From IMG/VR virus record IMGVR_UViG_3300036802_000027, positions 918 through 64,917 of that record: 64,000 bases of DNA; one strand, given 5' to 3'. The notes beneath the pieces are model-generated. The model had not been told where the DNA came from and searched no databases. It saw only the letters and a program-made list of their open reading frames with translations. Below are positions 12,654 through 60,571 of the stretch, one piece after another. This stretch comes from a virus (taxonomy: Duplodnaviria; Caudoviricetes). The position numbers were made by a program, and so were the translations under genes. Position 1 is the stretch's first letter, and each line of letters opens with the position of its first letter.

Positions 12654-13493
12654 CTATTCCGCTAGTAATTCCGGTGTTCTTGCTGGTGATATTGAATGTC
12701 GACAATTCGGGTGGAATATTTCACGCCGCGGAAGATCCCCGATGAACGGACAGTCTCCGGGAGCATCACGTATCAACTTGACTATCCGACCTTCCCACTT
12801 TGCACATGCATCTGATGCGCCATGACGAGATATTCTCCCGTAATAAGCCTTACGTCCGATAGCTTCGTTAATGGTCGCGTCCATATGTGTTCGTGACATC
12901 TTCGTACGTGATACCATTTCAACGTAGTTCTCTGGCTTCCAGCGACGTCCAGCCGCATCAATAATGCCGGTATCGACTGCGCTTCCTAACGTTGTTCTCA
13001 TCTGCACAAGGATCTCGCGACTTAACGTCTTTTGACCGTTAACTCCACGTGTCATATTCGCGCGAAACGAATCTGCCGTAGCCTGGCGAACTGCTTGTTT
13101 AACCCGGCGATCAACGTTTTGAGTTACAGCTAGTAAATCCGCATGAGTGTCTGCGACTGCTGCTGCTACGAATTCGTGATTGATTCGGCTGAACTTCGCA
13201 ATCTTACGCGCTTCTTCTATTGTGGGCACAACGCCGAGATCGACGATTGCGCGGATAACTCCATCTGTGGCCGCCTTCGTAACGTGTACTTCGACCCATT
13301 GCGCAGAGTCAGCGTTTAAACTTCGGAGTATCTTCGCCACCTCTGCGAGTGCGGCGTTAGCATTAGCGCGTGACATATCTGATAAATCCAAGCGTTGCAA
13401 CTCAGCAGATATCGCGATAATAGCAGATTTATACGCGTTGACGAAAAGTGATATGTCGCGGTTATAGCTCGGGTCGGTTAACGCTACTACCAT
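12654..13493 (-). CDS. minor capsid / head morphogenesis protein
   Basis: 'DAAGRRWKPENYVEMVSRT', 'IFHPNCRH' motifs; between portal and scaffold. Confidence 0.85.
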   Translation of the reverse strand: MVVALTDPSYNRDISLFVNAYKSAIIAISAELQRLDLSDMSRANANAALAEVAKILRSLNADSAQWVEVHVTKAATDGVIRAIVDLGVVPTIEEARKIAKFSRINHEFVAAAVADTHADLLAVTQNVDRRVKQAVRQATADSFRANMTRGVNGQKTLSREILVQMRTTLGSAVDTGIIDAAGRRWKPENYVEMVSRTKMSRTHMDATINEAIGRKAYYGRISRHGASDACAKWEGRIVKLIRDAPGDCPFIGDLPRREIFHPNCRHSISPARTPELLAE

Positions 13494-23027: not shown

Positions 23028-23655
23028 CCCCTCGGCACTGCACGAATGGTTCCGTCAACTCTCCGCCGTTTTCTCGCAGATTATACGTAACAACTTTCCC
23101 AGGCGCTATATCACGTTCATACCGCGCCGCCCTTTCCTCATTACGAATCTTAGCGCCAGCATCTACGCGCCAGTTTTCGTAATTTGTCCGACGTCTGCGC
23201 TTTGGTACGCGGTAGTCACGTCCGTCAGTGCCGACTTCCTCCGCAGCCTTAAGACTCGTTTCACGGTCGCGTCGGAGGTCTAATTGGCGTTGGCTAAAGA
23301 ACGGGTACTCGTTATGCTGTACCTTGTACGGATTTGGATCTGTTATTTCCTCGTCTAATACCGCGTCAGCCAATCGGTCAATCAGCGCCGTATTCAACGT
23401 TAATGATACCGGACGCTCACCAGTGCCACCTCGCTCAACCCACGCATCTATATTGCGTTGATTAACGTCAGCATGCGCCTTTACATAGTCGTCTGATATG
23501 CGTTGGATTAACGCCATACGCTCGGTGCGGTCAGCTATATCGTATTCGATACCGCCGTAACCAAAACGGATATTCGCGTCATTCTTGCGTCGTTTAATCG
23601 TGACTTCTAAATCCGATACCAATACCGCGAATAGTTCCGTATATGTTAACGTCAT
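23005..23655 (-). CDS. conserved phage hypothetical protein
   Basis: GGAGG RBS, translationally coupled to methyltransferase. Confidence 0.7.
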   Translation of the reverse strand: MTLTYTELFAVLVSDLEVTIKRRKNDANIRFGYGGIEYDIADRTERMALIQRISDDYVKAHADVNQRNIDAWVERGGTGERPVSLTLNTALIDRLADAVLDEEITDPNPYKVQHNEYPFFSQRQLDLRRDRETSLKAAEEVGTDGRDYRVPKRRRRTNYENWRVDAGAKIRNEERAARYERDIAPGKVVTYNLRENGGELTEPFVQCRGVSTQLHK

Positions 23656-28873: not shown

Positions 28874-29399
28874 TTACTTCGCCTCTCTTTCGCTAAAATA
28901 CGGAGTTAACCACGCGTCAACTTTAACAATTTCATCGCGGATGCTTAACGCTAGTTCGGATATCTCCGCCTGCGCACCGTTACCTGGACGTCTCTTCGCG
29001 TAGAAATCGAGCAGCGTCCGTAGGTTACCGGTCATAACGAGGTTACACGTAGCTGCGTTCGGGAGGACCATGCGTGCGTCTTCCGCAGGGACTCCGGCTT
29101 TACGGAGATCGTCATAGGTACGCTGAGCGGATTCCATTGCGTAAGTGAATATTTCCTCCTTCGCCATCTGACGCGACATTACCGAAGTACTTTGCGCCTT
29201 CCTTTTCGACGATTTCCGTCGGCTTGAGCGGAGAGTAACACGTTCGGATTGCGGTAAGGGCGACTGCTGCGCGGTGGTTGAGTCCGTCGACTACGTAAGG
29301 ATTACGCATTTGACGAGTGACTCCGACGTCCTTTTCGTAATCAAACTGCGAGATAAATTCGTTCGCTAACGCTGAGTGTGCAATTAATTTAACGTTCAA
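28874..29399 (-). pseudogene. thyX: flavin-dependent thymidylate synthase with internal deletion and frameshift
   Basis: N-terminus 'AVALTAIRTCYS' and C-terminus 'GVPAEDARMVLPNA...GNLRTLLDF...AQAEI' in different frames joined at ~29155; RHRx7SxR motif absent. Confidence 0.85.
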
Positions 29400-40329: not shown

Positions 40330-40757
40330 TACGCCACTTCCGTCGTATATAGTGCTCTATTCAACGCAATAGATAACTCGACCCAACGCTCAGATGCGCG
40401 TTCTTCTGACGCCCAATACTCGGAGAGTAATCGGTTTTCGAACATATAAACGCGTGGTATCTCACCCTCCGCTGCCCATACGCCAACGAAGTAATCAGCG
40501 TCGGATAAATCGTAGTTTGTTCCGTTACCTTTCTTCGCGTAGACAACGAGGTCGCCGCCACGGTCTGTACGCTGGCGAATCGTCTTAACTTGAATCTTCG
40601 CGTGATTACCGGTCATCGGATCGGTTGCGAGAATATCGTATGCTTCCGCCGTGCGGCTTTCGTGGATGCGCCAACCGTTCGCGAGCAACGCAACTTGTGC
40701 GATCAACTCCGAATAGGCGCCTGTAATTTCAGAAACGTGTGCCGTAAGAATCACCAC
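40329..40757 (-). CDS. PD-(D/E)XK endonuclease
   Basis: 'YDILA...KIQVKT' motif. Confidence 0.75.
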   Translation of the reverse strand: MVILTAHVSEITGAYSELIAQVALLANGWRIHESRTAEAYDILATDPMTGNHAKIQVKTIRQRTDRGGDLVVYAKKGNGTNYDLSDADYFVGVWAAEGEIPRVYMFENRLLSEYWASEERASERWVELSIALNRALYTTEVA

Positions 40758-40799: not shown

Positions 40800-41603
40800 T
40801 TAAAACGGCAGGTCTGCGTCTGTGATTGTGAATGGCGCGTCATCAACGGGGACAGCTTCGTCTGCAGGTGGCGGAGTTGCTGCGCTCGATCCGATGGATA
40901 AGCCAAGACGTCCAATATCAAAGCCTGCGATAACGAGATTCTTCGTTTGTTCCTCCTCATCCGCCTCAAACAAGAACCCTTCGAAGTTTTCGAAATCAAA
41001 CGGCGTTTCTCCAGTCTTAGCGAAATTCTTGCGTTCAGCTTCCGTCAGGTCTTCGTCCATATCGAGAATCGGAGATAGCGTAACGACCGTATCCGTAGAT
41101 TTACCTGACTTCGTTAGTTCAAACGCGAGTTTTTCAAGCTTCTTCTCGTATTTCGTAATCGTTGCGAAAACTCCCGCAGCTTGTTTCGGAGTTAAATCCA
41201 CAAATCCGTCTTCGCCAGTTTCGATATTTCCAAATCCTACAAGGTAACGCGGCTTTCCTTTTAATAGGTAAGCTTCGTTGCGGATCTTCTCCGCTTTGGC
41301 TTCGTCGCCAGCGTCTTTTGCGACTTTAGCGTCAGCGTACAACGAGTCTGCAGCGCGATCCCATACGGATGGATTCGCCGTAACGTACCCTTTCGCATTT
41401 CTTTCAGTAGATTGACTCGGTACAAACGTATTCACCTTTCCGTATACTCCGTAAGCGTAATACTCCGCGCTGTCGTCCTTCGACTTGATACGGATCTTAA
41501 TCGTCGTACCACTTGGAAACGCCACGTGTGCGCTCACCTTCGTATCTTTTTCCGCCTGTGCTGATTCGACTGCTGCTGCTCCGCGCTTTGTGAAAACTGA
41601 CAT
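40800..41603 (-). CDS. single-stranded DNA binding protein (T4 gp32-like architecture)
   Basis: acidic C-terminal tail ending 'DADLPF'; replication module; ATG 41603 after GAGGAG. Confidence 0.7.
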   Translation of the reverse strand: MSVFTKRGAAAVESAQAEKDTKVSAHVAFPSGTTIKIRIKSKDDSAEYYAYGVYGKVNTFVPSQSTERNAKGYVTANPSVWDRAADSLYADAKVAKDAGDEAKAEKIRNEAYLLKGKPRYLVGFGNIETGEDGFVDLTPKQAAGVFATITKYEKKLEKLAFELTKSGKSTDTVVTLSPILDMDEDLTEAERKNFAKTGETPFDFENFEGFLFEADEEEQTKNLVIAGFDIGRLGLSIGSSAATPPPADEAVPVDDAPFTITDADLPF

Positions 41604-48807: not shown

Positions 48808-49194
48808 ACCACTTCCTCCTTATAGTTAACGTAATCTAACACAAGATAACCTTGCGCTGCTTGCCGAAGGGTTCGGCGTAGCTGTATTCGGATAGTCGCA
48901 TGAGGTACGACTGTATTCCGTAACATTTTAAGCGGAGGTTTTCTTGCGCGGTGCTTTGGACGTTGGTTTCGACGGGCACCTATACCAGTGTTCGCGGTAT
49001 GTATTACGAGGTGGGTCGAGTGTTTCGAGGTATATCGGGTGTTGCGTGTATGTGTTCGTTTAACCTTATGACCCTATATTATATCCATATGCTTACAATG
49101 TCAATCATTAGGTTCAAATATATAATCAATTAGTATACTTTATAGGTTAAAGTGATATAATATTTAGGCAGACATTAATGAAGGAAGTGATATT

Positions 49195-53145: not shown

Positions 53146-53776
53146 ATTGCGTCCTCCTTTGAGTAATGAAATATGTAATATAGTGCAAACGATTTGGCGT
53201 AATTATAACGGATGAGTCTACGCGATAAAATTAATAGTTGACACTTTCGGTATCGTGTGTTATTTTATTAAATCTTTAAAGAACTATAAGATCTTAAGTA
53301 CTTAAGTTCTAAGAACTAATATATTAATCACTATCGTTCTTAATATATTCCGCATCGGATACAGTACAATCCGCTACGGGACTAGTAATACATATAGGAA
53401 TACGCGTAGAACTTAAGATAAAAGGCAAAAGATAAGCCCGACCCGCCGCGTTTCGTCCGCCCTCACCATCGACTTGCCCCGCATCCCTGTATTTCTTCCG
53501 TAAATCACCGTTGATTTAGCCGTTTTGATAGCGAAGGGGTATAAATGTTACCCTCCGATATCAAAACGTCCGTAGCACGCTGAGATTACGGAAGGATTAC
53601 ATATGTTACGTTTACGTAAACACTGACGATGATGATTTCGTATACGGAAACGTAAACGAATACAAATGTATTAAAAATCTCATCCGCTATACTTCAGTAA
53701 GTGTAAAATAGTGCAAACGATTAGTAGGCGTAGTTAGGCCGCATCCATTACGTTAGCGCCAACTAAATGGTCCTAA

Positions 53777-56925: not shown

Positions 56926-57110
56926 ACATATATCATGACAATTCCCCATATAGCCTTGCCCTCTTGTGGCAAAAATGGTATGATGGGTACATCAAAGTCA
57001 TTGTTTAAGTGTCGCCTGTTTCTGTCCGTTCGTGCGGATAGTAAGCAGCATCGGGTTGGTAGCCCGAGTCGCCTTGAAACAGTGACTATTTTGTTTTCCA
57101 TTTAATTCTA
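56926..57110 (-). ncRNA. candidate ~240-nt structured RNA ending at the 56877 terminator
   Basis: multibranch CUGUUUC/GAAACAG helix enclosing two hairpins; sigma-A promoter TTGACG-18-TATATT at 57222-57193. Confidence 0.45.
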
Positions 57111-57405: not shown

Positions 57406-58074
57406 CTACAGATTATTCTCCATTGGGATAGACGGTTCTGGTAATCTTTCATAGATATCGCGAGGTATGTAATATTTACGCGCCAAAGCGTAAGGGATTG
57501 TATAATCTCCAAACATATTGTCTAACGCCTTATCGTAGTCTATTCCTTCTGTTTGTTCCCTCCTCCAAGAAATATATACGCCATCATTCTCGCCCCCACC
57601 AACGTTATCCATTTTAGTACTAATACTCACCTCATAAACTTCTGGATTTTCAAACAGTATTTTTGAGTATGCTAAAAGGGAACCGCCCGACTTCCTAACA
57701 AAATCTTTTACATCTCCAAACATCCCTGGATTGACAGTTATATCAATGTACTTTCCTTTATCGTCCTCACTATATACGAATTTCCTAAAAGTAGTATCTG
57801 TTAACATAATTGACACTGCCGCATGTCCCGTGTCTTTTAGTGCTTCTCTAACGTTTTTCTCGTTAACCTCAGCTTTACTCCAATCAAATACAGGAGCATC
57901 TTCTTCTTTTGTCTCTTTTAGTCTTACAACACTCTCGACTACCGGTACAGTTACCTCCTCCTTAGTTATCTCTGGTTGGTCCTTGTTTACACTGTTAGAC
58001 GTTATAGTAGCCGCTTCCCCGCATCCCGAAGCCAGAACTGCGATTAGTATTAGTACAAAGCCTAATTTCCGCAT
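57406..58074 (-). CDS. lipoprotein (moron)
   Basis: lipobox 'LASGC' after signal peptide; own terminator. Confidence 0.8.
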   Translation of the reverse strand: MRKLGFVLILIAVLASGCGEAATITSNSVNKDQPEITKEEVTVPVVESVVRLKETKEEDAPVFDWSKAEVNEKNVREALKDTGHAAVSIMLTDTTFRKFVYSEDDKGKYIDITVNPGMFGDVKDFVRKSGGSLLAYSKILFENPEVYEVSISTKMDNVGGGENDGVYISWRREQTEGIDYDKALDNMFGDYTIPYALARKYYIPRDIYERLPEPSIPMENNL

Positions 58075-58244
58075 ATATGCATCCCCTATCGTTTTCCCTA
58101 AATTTTATCACTCTACTATATTACGCGTCTAGACGAAGAAAAGCGCCCGCTGACGAATCCCCACGTTTTATATACGTAGAAACTCGCCAACGGGCGCAGT
58201 TTTATTTCCGAATATCGTCTTTTAAACCTCACATAACATAATAC

Positions 58245-58273
58245 TTGCGTATTATATAATACCGCGGTATACT
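58245..58273 (+). promoter_or_regulatory. strong sigma-A promoter with two 12-bp palindromes
   Basis: TTGCGT-17-TATACT; TATTATATAATA (58250-58261) and ATACCGCGGTAT (58259-58270) between and over the boxes. Confidence 0.8.
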
Positions 58274-58317
58274 AAGTTTAGTTAAGAAATACCAACCAAA
58301 ACGAGGAGGAACAAACA

Positions 58318-58887
58318 ATGACAAACGTTATGAAAAGTGCTTGGGAAATCGCCTATGAAGGAGTTAAAAAATTCGGTGGGCAAGTTAAAGAGTACTTCGC
58401 AGATGCGTTGAGAATTGCTTGGTCCCTCTTCAAGAAAGGAGGAAAAGCATTGGAAACTAAAAAAGAAATTTTTGCAGCTAAAGTAAACCAGTACGTATCT
58501 GCCGCAAAGGGAATAAAGAAATACAAAAATGACACAAAGGAAGTTAATGCCGCTAATCTAATCGCGATGTTTAACGAAGAAAAAGCGGATGGATTAATAA
58601 AATTGATGAGCAAAAAAGCAGACGAGTTAGAATTGCGTGTGAAGCAACTACAAGCAACGGTCATTCGCACAAAACGCTTCGAAAAAATGTATCACCTCAT
58701 CACGCTTAAAAAAGATCAAAAAGTTGAAAGTCTAGTTAAAAAAGATGCAGAAGGATATCACGTAATATTCGGTTCTGGATTCTACCGCGTTATCGAAAAT
58801 GGAGTAGAGAAGTACATCCAAACAGTTCCAGGCAACACATCAATGAGAGAATTGGATAAAGAAACAGTTATTCGTTTCAAAAGATAA
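58318..58887 (+). CDS. hypothetical protein, candidate anti-defence protein
   Basis: GAGGAGG RBS; N-terminal 'VMKSAWEIAYEGVKKFGG..KEYFADALRIAW' helical module; AT-rich. Confidence 0.75.
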   Translation: MTNVMKSAWEIAYEGVKKFGGQVKEYFADALRIAWSLFKKGGKALETKKEIFAAKVNQYVSAAKGIKKYKNDTKEVNAANLIAMFNEEKADGLIKLMSKKADELELRVKQLQATVIRTKRFEKMYHLITLKKDQKVESLVKKDAEGYHVIFGSGFYRVIENGVEKYIQTVPGNTSMRELDKETVIRFKR

Positions 58888-58939
58888 TTAAACTTCCCGG
58901 GAGGGTTCGCCCTCCTATCATTTAAAGGATGTGAACAGT

Positions 58940-59470
58940 ATGAATAATGCCTTTGAACAAATGCGAGAAGGTGTGCAATGGGTACTGGACAATTGCACAT
59001 CCTATCAGGTTGCAAAAGATTTAAGGATCAACAACAGAACTATAAATCGTTATCAAAACGGAACAACCGAAACGTCAAAAATGGCGTTAGAAACCGCTGA
59101 GAAGTTGTATAGCTATTACTTAGAGGAGCTGAATAAGATGGATCGAGAAGAACTCTTTAGTAGGGCGTTAGCCGCCCTAAATAAAATAAGTGTAAGGCAT
59201 TTTGAAAAAGGAAAACCGAGTATAGAGGTAAAGTATATGAAGGACTTTAGCTTAAAGCCGATGACAATCTACGCTAGAGCGATCAAGGATGTCAGTCTTT
59301 ATGCCGATAAATTTGATGGTTATGATTTAACTTTGTGGGACCGCGCAACTAATTACATTGGATCTATGGACACTACTACTTTCAACGACGATCCACTAAG
59401 TCCTAAGTGTCTGATTTATTTCAGTAAAGAGATGACTTCTCTAAATACGTTTAAGGAGGATAACAAATGA
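58940..59470 (+). CDS. HTH (Aca-like) fused to Cas11c/Cas8c-C-terminus-like domain
   Basis: HTH 'SYQVAKDLRINNRTINRYQNG...LETAEKLY'; C-terminal 'LFSRALAALNK..SIEVKYMKDFSLKP'; internal GAGGAG-9nt-ATG at 59138. Confidence 0.6.
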   Translation: MNNAFEQMREGVQWVLDNCTSYQVAKDLRINNRTINRYQNGTTETSKMALETAEKLYSYYLEELNKMDREELFSRALAALNKISVRHFEKGKPSIEVKYMKDFSLKPMTIYARAIKDVSLYADKFDGYDLTLWDRATNYIGSMDTTTFNDDPLSPKCLIYFSKEMTSLNTFKEDNK

Positions 59471-59513
59471 ATAAAGGAACACCGTCAGCGTAAAGCTGAC
59501 GGTGTTCCTTTAT
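59471..59513. terminator. bidirectional terminator, perfect 19-bp inverted repeat
   Basis: ATAAAGGAACACCGTCAGC / GCTGACGGTGTTCCTTTAT with 5-nt loop. Confidence 0.9.
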
Positions 59514-59533
59514 CTATAAGAGACTTTAAGTTT

Positions 59534-59565
59534 ATTGTAATCCGCGCTGGAGCATGTCCAGCGAA
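59534..59565 (-). CRISPR. solitary type I-C-like CRISPR repeat unit (not an array)
   Basis: 32 nt TTCGCTGGACATGCTCCAGCGCGGATTACAAT: 2 nt + 7-bp CGC..GCG stem + 5-nt loop + 11-nt tail, same layout as I-C repeats (GTCGC...GCGTGGATTGAAAT). Confidence 0.6.
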
Positions 59566-59588
59566 TTGCGATACTAGCCAGCATAATT

Positions 59589-59617
59589 AATATACACTTT
59601 TAAGGTAAGATTGTAAA
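59589..59617 (-). promoter_or_regulatory. sigma-A promoter driving the repeat-containing small RNA
   Basis: TTTACA-17-TATATT; start expected near 59582. Confidence 0.7.
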
Positions 59618-59637: not shown

Positions 59638-59871
59638 TTATTTCTTCGCTCCAACCGCCGATTTCCCGACGTCATACAATTTACACGCGGCTAGTCCCGT
59701 TATAATCCCCGTCATGATTCCGTCGGCCACTGTCGTATGCGGAATATATAGTAGCCCTGCAGCGAGCCCGATTACCATTGATATTAGCGGAAGATACTTC
59801 GCGGGCACGTATAACTTGAAGAACTCACCTAACGCGATAATCACCGCAACCACTACGCCTATTTCGTACAT
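59638..59871 (-). CDS. holin
   Basis: 77 aa, three hydrophobic segments, 'GIITGLAACKLYD', after endolysin. Confidence 0.8.
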   Translation of the reverse strand: MYEIGVVVAVIIALGEFFKLYVPAKYLPLISMVIGLAAGLLYIPHTTVADGIMTGIITGLAACKLYDVGKSAVGAKK

Positions 59872-59872
59872 A

Positions 59873-60571
59873 TTACTTCGCCCCCGTTTCGATATTTACC
59901 GTTTTAGTCTTCGCGTCCCACGTTACTTTCGCGCCGAGTGCTTCCGCCACTGCTCGCGCCGGTGTATACGTAGTCCCTGCGTCCAGCACTCCGTCCGCTA
60001 TCTTTTTACCATTAACGACTATGCATACTTTTACGTCTTTGTTCACGTCATTGACCGCCTTCTCCGCGTTATTTAACTTTGCTTGGACGGACGCCTTAAA
60101 CGCGATCCATCCCGTCCATTTACCGCCGTCATACATTAGTCGCGGACATATTTTACCGGACCAGTCGAAGTGTCTGCGCAGTCTATCCACGCCCCATCCG
60201 CGTTCCTTCAGCATTGATGCAACGAGAGTGGCCGCGTTATCCAGCGTCTTTGCGTAATTCCCACTTTCGCAGATTTCAATGCCAATTGACGTACGGTTAC
60301 CTGATTTCGCGGAGCTACCGTCGCCAGCGTGCCACGCGTTCTCATTCAGCGGAATACATTCGACTGCTTCGCGTTCATCTACTGCGATGTGGAACGATGC
60401 CTGGCGTAAGTTAGTCGGATTAGTTAACCACGTGCGTTCGTTAGCCGCGGTAGAGCTCGGATTTCCCGTATTGTGTATCGTAATTGTAGTCGCGGTCATC
60501 GCGTTAGCAGATCGTCTATTGCACGCTGTATTTCGTGGAATATAATCTTTACGGTAATTCATTCGCGCCAC
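59873..60571 (-). CDS. endolysin, N-acetylmuramoyl-L-alanine amidase (Amidase_2) with C-terminal copper-amine-oxidase-N-like domain
   Basis: 'ITIHNTGN', 'ASFHIAVD', 'AWHAGDG', 'SIGIEICE', 'HFDWSGKICP'. Confidence 0.95.
   Translation of the reverse strand: MARMNYRKDYIPRNTACNRRSANAMTATTITIHNTGNPSSTAANERTWLTNPTNLRQASFHIAVDEREAVECIPLNENAWHAGDGSSAKSGNRTSIGIEICESGNYAKTLDNAATLVASMLKERGWGVDRLRRHFDWSGKICPRLMYDGGKWTGWIAFKASVQAKLNNAEKAVNDVNKDVKVCIVVNGKKIADGVLDAGTTYTPARAVAEALGAKVTWDAKTKTVNIETGAK

Follow-up and report, generated by a model that had tools for sequence, protein, structure and literature searches.

A phage-borne Cas11c-like protein joined to an Aca-type domain as a candidate inhibitor of type I-C CRISPR immunity

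Introduction

What use might a phage have for a piece of its host's Cascade complex? The question is raised by a small AT-rich island (58245-59617) in the IMG/VR virus record IMGVR_UViG_3300036802_000027 (Caudoviricetes), which is a complete phage record of 64.9 kb with direct terminal repeats. Nearly all of this record, a stretch of 64,000 nucleotides that is called the window below, was analysed. A preliminary description, made from the sequence alone, had read the island as a plus-strand operon of two genes facing a convergent small RNA with a type I-C-like repeat, and had proposed that protein and RNA act together as one module against type I-C CRISPR immunity. The two-gene operon on the plus strand is present as described. 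The reading favored here, with a probability of about 0.6, is that the second gene of the operon (gene 2) encodes a self-regulated protein directed against type I-C systems, which would act as a faulty Cascade subunit and is carried in an operon of the anti-CRISPR (acr) type. This reading combines sequence comparison, a structural model and analogy to an inhibitor of another CRISPR type. The RNA appears to be a separate and uncertain element, and not part of a proven two-part module.

The C-terminal domain of gene 2

The protein encoded by gene 2 consists of an N-terminal helix-turn-helix (HTH) domain and a C-terminal domain of 110 residues. Taken alone, the C-terminal domain gives a weak match to the end of Cas_Csd1 (Pfam E 0.025; BLASTP 1e-4). 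A phmmer search over 1.8 billion representatives yields a family of 26 proteins, in which a domain of ~105 residues stands alone (in proteins of ~105-120 amino acids), follows an N-terminal HTH or precedes a different, C-terminal HTH (HTH_17/HTH_59). Pfam Cas_Csd1 (PF09709) is matched by 18 of 27 family members, the best match having an E value of 3.8e-15. The family aligns in hhalign with residues 512-621 of the 631-residue Cas8c protein of Paenibacillus sp. DS2015 (98.4%, E 7e-15), the family hidden Markov model recognizes the same Cas8c with E 3.4e-19, and the comparison of the family profile with a profile of 21 Paenibacillus Cas11c regions gives 99.5% and E 6e-23. The hosts produce Cas11c by internal translation of cas8c. 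The internal start of the DS2015 gene is Met506, which is preceded by AAGGAGG, and the phage domain begins at the equivalent place, at a methionine preceded by GAGGAG.

A structural comparison with Cas8c and Cas11c had been set beforehand as a check of the proposed relationship, and the similarity was found. The AlphaFold2 model of the domain, which was computed from the family alignment, has a predicted local distance difference test score (pLDDT) of 95; a model of the whole gene 2 protein made with three sequences reached a pLDDT of 47 and was not used. The top 12 Foldseek matches are all type I-C Cas11c proteins or Cas8c C-terminal domains. VIA-align superimposes 97-108 of the 110 residues onto the solved I-C Cas11c and Cas8c C-terminal domain structures (8dex_J, 7kha_K, 9jhb_B and 8dfo_I residues 496-608) with Z scores of 11.4-13.8 and a root-mean-square deviation of 1.7-3.2 Å, and the next unrelated match has a Z score of 4.3. 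In the model, the domain carries the five-helix fold of the small subunits. The profile, AlphaFold2, Foldseek and VIA-align evidence strongly confirms the earlier assignment of gene 2 as an HTH of the anti-CRISPR-associated (Aca) type followed by a Cas11c-like domain, the last 110 residues of the protein being, by sequence and model, a true homologue of the Cas8c C-terminus.

The domain is thus like Cas11c (the C-terminus of PF09709; PDB entries 7kha, 8dex and 8g9s) in its fold, in homology over the whole domain and in its start after an internal Shine-Dalgarno-like motif. Unlike Cas11c, it lies outside a cas operon, is less basic and belongs to a separate clade that is found in phages and prophages. 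The complete phage contains no other cas gene, no cas operon and no Cas_Csd1 match above the cut-off. Of the 49 columns that are invariant among 21 host Cas11c sequences, 13 are kept in the phage protein; in the orphan family, which has conserved residues of its own, 12 host-invariant columns have a conservation of 0%. The isoelectric point (pI) of the phage domain is 6.6, compared with 9.35 for the host Cas11c. Because no other cas gene is present, most invariant residues are lost and the domain is less basic, gene 2 is not the gene of a working Cas11c subunit of a I-C system.

The HTH domain and the control of the operon

A profile built from gene 2 and its two full-length relatives matches, through the HTH domain, the solved structures of the AcrIIA15 N-terminal domain (NTD; 8jfr_B, E 3.1e-5) and of Aca11 (9lx2_A, E 8.4e-4). 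The domain also matches phrog_1529 with E 2e-13. AcrIIA15 consists of an HTH and a C-terminal domain that blocks Cas9, and a dimer of its HTH binds two upstream inverted repeats to repress its own operon (PMC10901769). The gene 2 protein is like AcrIIA15 (and also AcrIIA13 and AcrIIA14) and Aca11 in its homologous HTH, in the combination of this HTH with a variable inhibitor domain, and in the two inverted repeats at the promoter (PMC10901769; PMC12282945). It differs in that the C-terminal domain of AcrIIA15 is an unrelated DNA mimic directed against Cas9, in the operator sequence, and in that repression is here a prediction.

The two inverted repeats of the operon promoter, reported earlier as palindromes, are real, and are more aptly viewed as a tandem pair of 14-bp operators. 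Their pattern has five matches at three sites in the window, compared with 0.44 expected from shuffled sequences. Two of the three sites fall on the cassette promoter, where one overlies the -35 element, the other the spacer and the -10 element. The promoter itself, which had been called a strong sigma-A promoter, can be read at 58245-58273, but a promoter scan prefers an overlapping site at 58233-58260. At the other end of the operon, the perfect 19-bp terminator, which would be common to the cassette and to the transcripts of the minus strand, is as first reported.

A third perfect copy of the operator (AATAC-N4-GTATT) is located at window positions 53659-53672. It lies within a stretch of ~560 nucleotides that is free of open reading frames (ORFs) and also bears repeated ACGTAAAC motifs. 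This copy is possibly a second binding site for the gene 2 HTH.

The same HTH of ~65 residues is found joined to many unrelated C-terminal domains in a search of the protein universe. Gene 2 might then encode simply a transcription factor, the Cas11c-derived bundle of which serves as an oligomerization or sensor domain without acting on CRISPR, and the loss of most Cas11c-invariant residues would fit such a role. This explanation is unlikely, as the domain also occurs stand-alone or joined to an unrelated HTH at its other end, the loci resemble acr loci, and the hosts carry type I-C systems. Since the bundle is found both by itself and with unrelated types of HTH at the other end, it is best regarded as the cargo and the HTH as an add-on. 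With its varied HTH partners, the AcrIIA15-like and Aca11-like HTH of gene 2 and the two operators at the promoter, the family resembles fusions of an Acr to an Aca.

Gene 1 and the operons of related loci

Gene 1 matches the Pfam family Phage_Gp111 (PF07410) with E 2.5e-15 and 57.5 bits (cut-off 27.1), over residues 3-68 only, and its relatives share just the first 21-32% of the protein. The remaining C-terminal part has no detectable relatives, and a protein atlas search with it gave no usable match. The NCBIfam search with genes 1 and 2 returned nothing.

In phages D1811 and D4276, a gene with a Gp111 domain immediately precedes the gene of a proven inhibitor (AcrIIA6 and AcrIIA5, respectively), just past the lysin gene. 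Independent loci show the pairing again. In a 65.8-kb viral contig (L014; L numbers denote the loci that were compared), a 102-residue gene and then an HTH-Cas11c-like gene come after a Gp111-type gene, and next are the amidase and holin genes in convergent orientation. Two prophage regions of Paenibacillus (L051 and L052) have an operon that is headed by a Gp111-type gene, and its last gene is Cas11c-like with a C-terminal HTH. Acr operons typically look like this, with variable cargo placed between a conserved leader gene and a gene that bears an HTH. The position after the lysis genes, the Gp111-type leader gene and the operators on the promoter support the view that the cassette has the hallmarks of an acr locus. 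Gene 1 may be a second cargo gene, with its Gp111 N-terminal domain marking the first gene of known acr operons.

Several observations on these genes can be added. Gene 1 has 72-81% DNA identity, over its ribosome-binding site and initial 35 codons (58306-58424), to its counterparts in the Streptococcus thermophilus phages Sfi21, TP-J34 and D1811, a striking conservation across host genera. In two phages that otherwise differ, the gene immediately before the Cas11c-like gene encodes a protein of ~102 residues (L014:529-837 and L012:3694-4005), with 47% identity between the two and no family match; it is a candidate for a partner or an additional anti-defence gene. Both Paenibacillus prophage loci encode a small acidic protein of 55-79 residues, with a common motif ending in NWRCDS, the gene of which lies immediately before the Cas11c-like-HTH gene and extends over its start (L051:1830-1997 and L052:1827-2066). 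Finally, in the viral contig, the region that separates the HTH-Cas11c-like gene from the convergent amidase (L014:1400-1535) contains a plus-strand promoter (TTGACA-17-TAAAAT) and a short transcript with its own terminator, which is devoid of a I-C-like repeat.

Type I-C immunity in the likely host genus

The phage is likely of Paenibacillus type and infects Paenibacillus or a close relative. The sole genomic relative of gene 2 that was found is a decayed fragment in Paenibacillus sp. DS2015. This homologue is frameshifted and truncated, has 83% identity over residues 5-91 and lies among decayed mobile-element genes (L004:8001-8270). The DS2015 genome contains a complete I-C operon and an array of 115 repeats, and full-length Cas8c is present in 35 of 116 genomes of the Paenibacillus genus.

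At least eight I-C spacers of the DS2015 array match the phage with 78-84% identity over their full length, and shuffled spacers reach at most 71%. The I-C motif TTC precedes the protospacer in six of the top eight matches, and the mismatches between spacer and phage tend to be at third codon positions. One of the protospacers lies inside the holin gene beside the island. These matches are evidence that relatives of the phage have been captured by the DS2015 array. The full-length Cas8c of these genomes and the spacer matches mean that phages of the lineage are confronted with type I-C immunity. A search of the host for I-C genes had been suggested in the preliminary description, and the likely host genus does carry the system and does target the lineage.

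A possible mode of action

By combining these observations with what has been described for type I-B, it is possible to propose how the gene 2 protein might act. AcrIB4, a proposed faulty subunit, is homologous to the final 90 residues of Cas8b. It inhibits type I-B immunity at a stage before DNA is bound: Cascade is assembled all the same, but does not engage DNA (bioRxiv 10.1101/2023.06.24.545427). Like AcrIB4, which is found on mobile elements of Listeria seeligeri, gene 2 is an orphan homologue of the small-subunit-like C-terminal part of the Cascade large subunit and resides on a mobile element. The two differ in origin: AcrIB4 derives from Cas8b of type I-B with 38% identity, and gene 2 derives from Cas8c/Cas11c of type I-C with ~24% identity and is fused to an Aca-type HTH. 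This likeness is drawn from the description of AcrIB4, not from its sequence. As in loci of the AcrIB3/AcrIB4 kind, gene 2 is an orphan cas homologue on a mobile element, outside a CRISPR-Cas locus and in an anti-defence-like setting. The analogy to AcrIB4 is the ground for regarding the gene 2 protein as a faulty subunit.

The Cas11c-like domain of the phage would occupy the place of the small subunit on the host Cas7c/Cas8c. A Cascade that has taken up the phage subunit would then be unable to hold or open the target DNA. The HTH, as a dimer, would bind the two operators on the promoter of its own cassette. Binding would shut the cassette off after a first, early burst of expression, as is the case for AcrIIA15 and the Aca proteins. 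What the analysis shows is that the domain is homologous to Cas11c, has its fold and has diverged from the real subunit, how the operon is built, and that the phage lineage is under I-C pressure; binding to Cascade, inhibition and autorepression by the gene 2 protein are inferred.

Several points weigh against this reading. The closest relatives of gene 2 are few, namely two full-length proteins and one 1-kb contig (L127), and the latter was the sole hit when viral and metagenome sequences were scanned for full-length relatives. The difference in charge from host Cas11c is modest and varies in the family (pI 4.7-9.5). Promoter-like sites are not enriched in the region (7 found versus 5.0 expected from shuffles), and the promoter and operators are known from reading the sequence only. 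The imperfect spacer matches indicate targeting of relatives and not of this genome, and Paenibacillus is only the likely genus of the host. Finally, a helical domain derived from a small subunit could be reused in another way, for example in the dimerization of a repressor.

The repeat-like RNA

On the minus strand, the stretch between the holin gene and the common terminator is the 3' untranslated region (UTR) of holin. It contains the degenerate I-C repeat-like unit that gave rise to the proposal of a small RNA with its own promoter. A promoter-like site agreeing at 10 of 12 positions is indeed present, but such sites are not enriched, and the unit would be transcribed anyway, by late read-through, because it lies downstream of the holin gene.

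The geometry of the unit is that of a I-C repeat. It has 20/32 identity to the DS2015 repeat, and all seven base pairs are kept through three compensatory changes. A unit that matches at once in the stem base, in the length and letters of the loop and in the tail is expected 0.011 times per window, a statistic that was chosen after the element had been seen; for a looser descriptor (seven pairs, with the handle matching at 8 or more of 11 positions), the chance expectation per window is 0.55. The centroid fold contains the hairpin, and the 71-nucleotide stretch without the terminator folds no better than shuffled sequences (z 0.11). A covariance model of the host repeat was built from 21 Paenibacillus I-C arrays, which were located independently via Cas8c. 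This model gives the unit 2.6 bits locally, and in a scan of the window at E values up to 10 the unit is not reported and is not among the best matches. The host repeats are near-invariant in the handle, and the tail of the phage unit differs at 3 of the 11 positions that are invariant there. An Rfam search of the region found nothing relevant, which is uninformative because Rfam also misses the true host repeat. The claim of a I-C-like repeat is only partly confirmed: the geometry and the identity speak for it, the score with the host model and the expectation for the looser descriptor against it.

Arrays with the variant handle were found neither in 116 Paenibacillus-genus genomes, which contain just single chance matches inside genes, nor in 401 sampled Bacillota genomes, which never have more than two matches per genome. 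The spacer-like stretch between tail and terminator has no convincing target in the DS2015 I-C locus, 28 cas8c loci, 20 cas3-cas5c intergenic regions or the window, and no TTC-flanked match of at least 11/14 was found in 21 Paenibacillus I-C loci. A I-C-like repeat lies beside none of the gene 2 relatives in 11 related loci (L007-L014, L051, L052 and L127), and a Cas11c-like gene lies near none of the viral I-C-like repeats in 33 loci. A repeat-like match in L007/L008 was dismissed, as it falls inside the downstream ORF.

There is a somewhat better than even chance that the hairpin has nothing to do with CRISPR and bears a chance likeness to a repeat, being for instance a stabilizing or pausing hairpin that precedes the terminator in the 3' UTR of the lysis operon. 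The failure of the host-repeat model to find the unit, the frequency at which the looser descriptor is expected, the lack of conservation in relatives and the unremarkable fold of the 71-nucleotide stretch all agree with this. The rarity of the joint match of stem, loop and tail speaks against it, as does the fact that the unit adjoins the one cas-derived gene of the genome.

In the Paenibacillus I-C loci themselves, a crRNA-like (CRISPR RNA-like) gene lies in the interval from cas3 to cas5c and runs opposite to the cas genes. Its parts are a -10 box, a repeat that is shortened but keeps its 11-nucleotide handle intact, ~18 nucleotides and a terminator hairpin. In DS2015, the 18 nucleotides match a TTC-flanked site (L006:6536-6554, 15/18) that is ~80 nucleotides upstream of cas5c, so that the gene looks like an autoregulatory circuit of the CreR type. 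One of the host crRNA-like genes shares with the phage unit the C at the first position of the handle.

The phage RNA could therefore, by analogy with the Cracr RNAs, be a viral copy of such a host regulator. Viral Cracr RNAs, including I-C ones, have been reported (bioRxiv 10.1101/2024.10.29.618823). The phage unit is like CreR/CreA and Cracr in its order of promoter, degenerate repeat, short spacer-like stretch and terminator; unlike them, it has no TTC-flanked target among the loci searched, and its handle is more degenerate than those of four host examples. A CRISPR-related RNA, either a decoy of the Racr type that is cut or bound by Cas5c or a regulator of the Cracr type that loads into the host Cascade and acts together with the Cas11c-like protein, is possible but doubtful. 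In its favor are the I-C geometry with compensatory changes and its low expected frequency, the distance of less than 70 nucleotides to the Cas11c-like gene, transcription from either the promoter-like site or holin read-through, and a layout (promoter, degenerate repeat with handle, ~20 nucleotides, terminator) equal to that of the host cas3-cas5c genes. The low score with the host model, the altered handle, the lack of variant-handle arrays in the genomes sampled and of a spacer target in the 21 I-C loci, the absence of such a unit from related loci and the post hoc choice of the supporting statistic all count against it.

Could RNA and protein nevertheless form one device, as first proposed? 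The degenerate repeat RNA would have to be loaded by the host Cas5c/Cas7c, and the phage subunit would replace the host Cas11c. The host subunits would thus be drawn into a dead or re-targeted Cascade, a counterfeit effector complex of protein and RNA that consists of I-C-derived parts throughout and that the HTH could also tether to DNA. Such a device is very unlikely, and the joint occurrence on which the idea of one module depends is not seen in either set of loci, with counts of 0/11 and 0/33. A hijack of the host Cascade, in which the HTH-Cas11c protein, maybe with the phage RNA, tethers or re-purposes the complex to silence genes of the host or of rival phages, is highly improbable. AcrIIA15 does hold promoter DNA and Cas9 together in a single complex (PMC10901769), crRNA-like RNAs serve as regulators in host I-C loci, and the internal start signal of gene 2 could give both a tethered and a free form of the protein. 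The idea is nonetheless speculative, with no target found for the spacer-like stretch and an RNA that is not conserved.

Diverged and near-canonical repeats also occur elsewhere in viruses. Single near-canonical I-C repeats (solitary repeat units) are present in many IMG/VR contigs (L017, L021, L024, L027, L029, L031, L034, L035, L038, L041, L047 and L049). Three others (L019, L036 and L048) have a common diverged unit, the tail of which resembles that of the unit in the window.

Relation to published systems and significance

The preliminary description knew of no precedent for the combination of a cas-derived protein with a repeat-like RNA, but comparable cases have been published. In a Bifidobacterium prophage, AcrIC5 and RacrIC1, both of which are active, are encoded in one acr-racr operon directed against type I-C (PMC10651486). 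The phage locus is like this operon in having a candidate protein inhibitor and a repeat-like RNA side by side. In the Bifidobacterium operon, the RNA lies 11 nucleotides downstream on the same transcript and is a close mimic of the repeat. The phage RNA, unlike RacrIC1, is convergent, strongly diverged, not conserved and putative, and the phage protein is derived from a cas gene. Inhibitors derived from cas genes (AcrIB3 and AcrIB4) and hundreds of orphan viral cas genes have also been published (bioRxiv 10.1101/2023.06.24.545427), as have fusions of an HTH to an Acr (PMC10901769).

With respect to the literature searched, the apparently new elements are a Cas11c-derived family probably directed against type I-C, its fusion to Aca-type domains and its link to operons led by Gp111-type genes. 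To our knowledge, faulty-subunit inhibitors derived from cas genes have been shown only for type I-B. If the favored reading of gene 2 is true, the Cas11c-derived family would extend the faulty-subunit principle to type I-C and would be a clear case of phages turning a part of the host defence into a weapon. Type I-C is a compact system that is used for large-deletion genome editing. The gene 2 protein might thus be a natural off-switch for I-C, the mechanism of which can be guessed from the solved Cascade structures. The Gp111 domain and an orphan Cas11c might serve as a pair of markers for new anti-defence loci in phages of the Bacillota. The C-terminal domain of gene 1 and the 102-residue partner gene of related loci are candidates for further inhibitors.

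Setting of the locus

A megablast search with the whole window against phage records found no match, and the phage has no close relative among the deposited phage genomes. The cassette (58240-59513) sits between a lipoprotein gene and the lysis genes (Table 1). The island is AT-rich, as described: its G+C content is 0.36-0.39 over 58200-59600, compared with ~0.50-0.55 in the adjoining lysis genes. The drop in G+C content starts already near 57000, before the island.

Table 1. Features of the cassette, its surroundings and the compared loci (window positions unless an L number is given)
Feature	Position	Strand	Remarks
Lipoprotein gene	57406-58074	minus	flanks cassette
Predicted operators, two tandem 14-bp inverted repeats	58240-58253, 58258-58271	plus	pattern AATAC-N4-GTAT(T/A)
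Putative cassette promoter, sigma-70-like	-35 58245-58250, -10 58268-58273	plus	read from sequence; predicted function
Gene 1, 189 amino acids	58318-58887	plus	N-terminal Phage_Gp111 (residues 3-68) and C-terminal part of ~120 amino acids
G/C hairpin between genes 1 and 2	58896-58918	plus	read from sequence
Similar G/C hairpin before gene 2 homologue	L127:303-323; L007:1712-1736
Gene 2	58940-59470	plus	HTH and Cas11c-like domain
HTH domain of gene 2, residues 1-66	58940-59137	plus	Aca11/AcrIIA15-NTD type; structure-profile search
Cas11c-like domain of gene 2, residues 67-176	59138-59470	plus	starts at conserved internal Met after GAGGAG
Bidirectional terminator hairpin	59471-59513	both	19 perfect pairs; common to cassette and minus-strand transcripts
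Spacer-like stretch	59514-59533	minus	between tail and terminator; by position only
Degenerate I-C repeat-like unit	59565-59534	minus	7-bp stem (59563-59557/59551-59545), 5-nucleotide loop, 11-nucleotide handle-like tail (59544-59534)
Promoter-like site for small RNA	59617-59589	minus	TTTACA, 17 nucleotides, TATATT; 10/12 positions; predicted
Holin	59638-59871	minus	lysis gene beside island
Amidase	59873-60571	minus	lysis gene after holin
Protospacer-like sites, DS2015 array	41034-41065, 12940-12974, 48854-48890, 40534-40568, 23396-23429, 23506-23538, 59788-59820, 29217-29252		mostly 5' TTC
Host crRNA-like genes	L006:6430-6560 (DS2015), L106 near 546, L112 near 75, L117 near 222

The G/C-rich hairpin (GGGAGGG ... 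CCCTCC) listed between genes 1 and 2 is found in three loci, in each case just 5' of the ribosome-binding site of the Cas11c-like gene. It could have a role in attenuation, processing or stability of the transcript.

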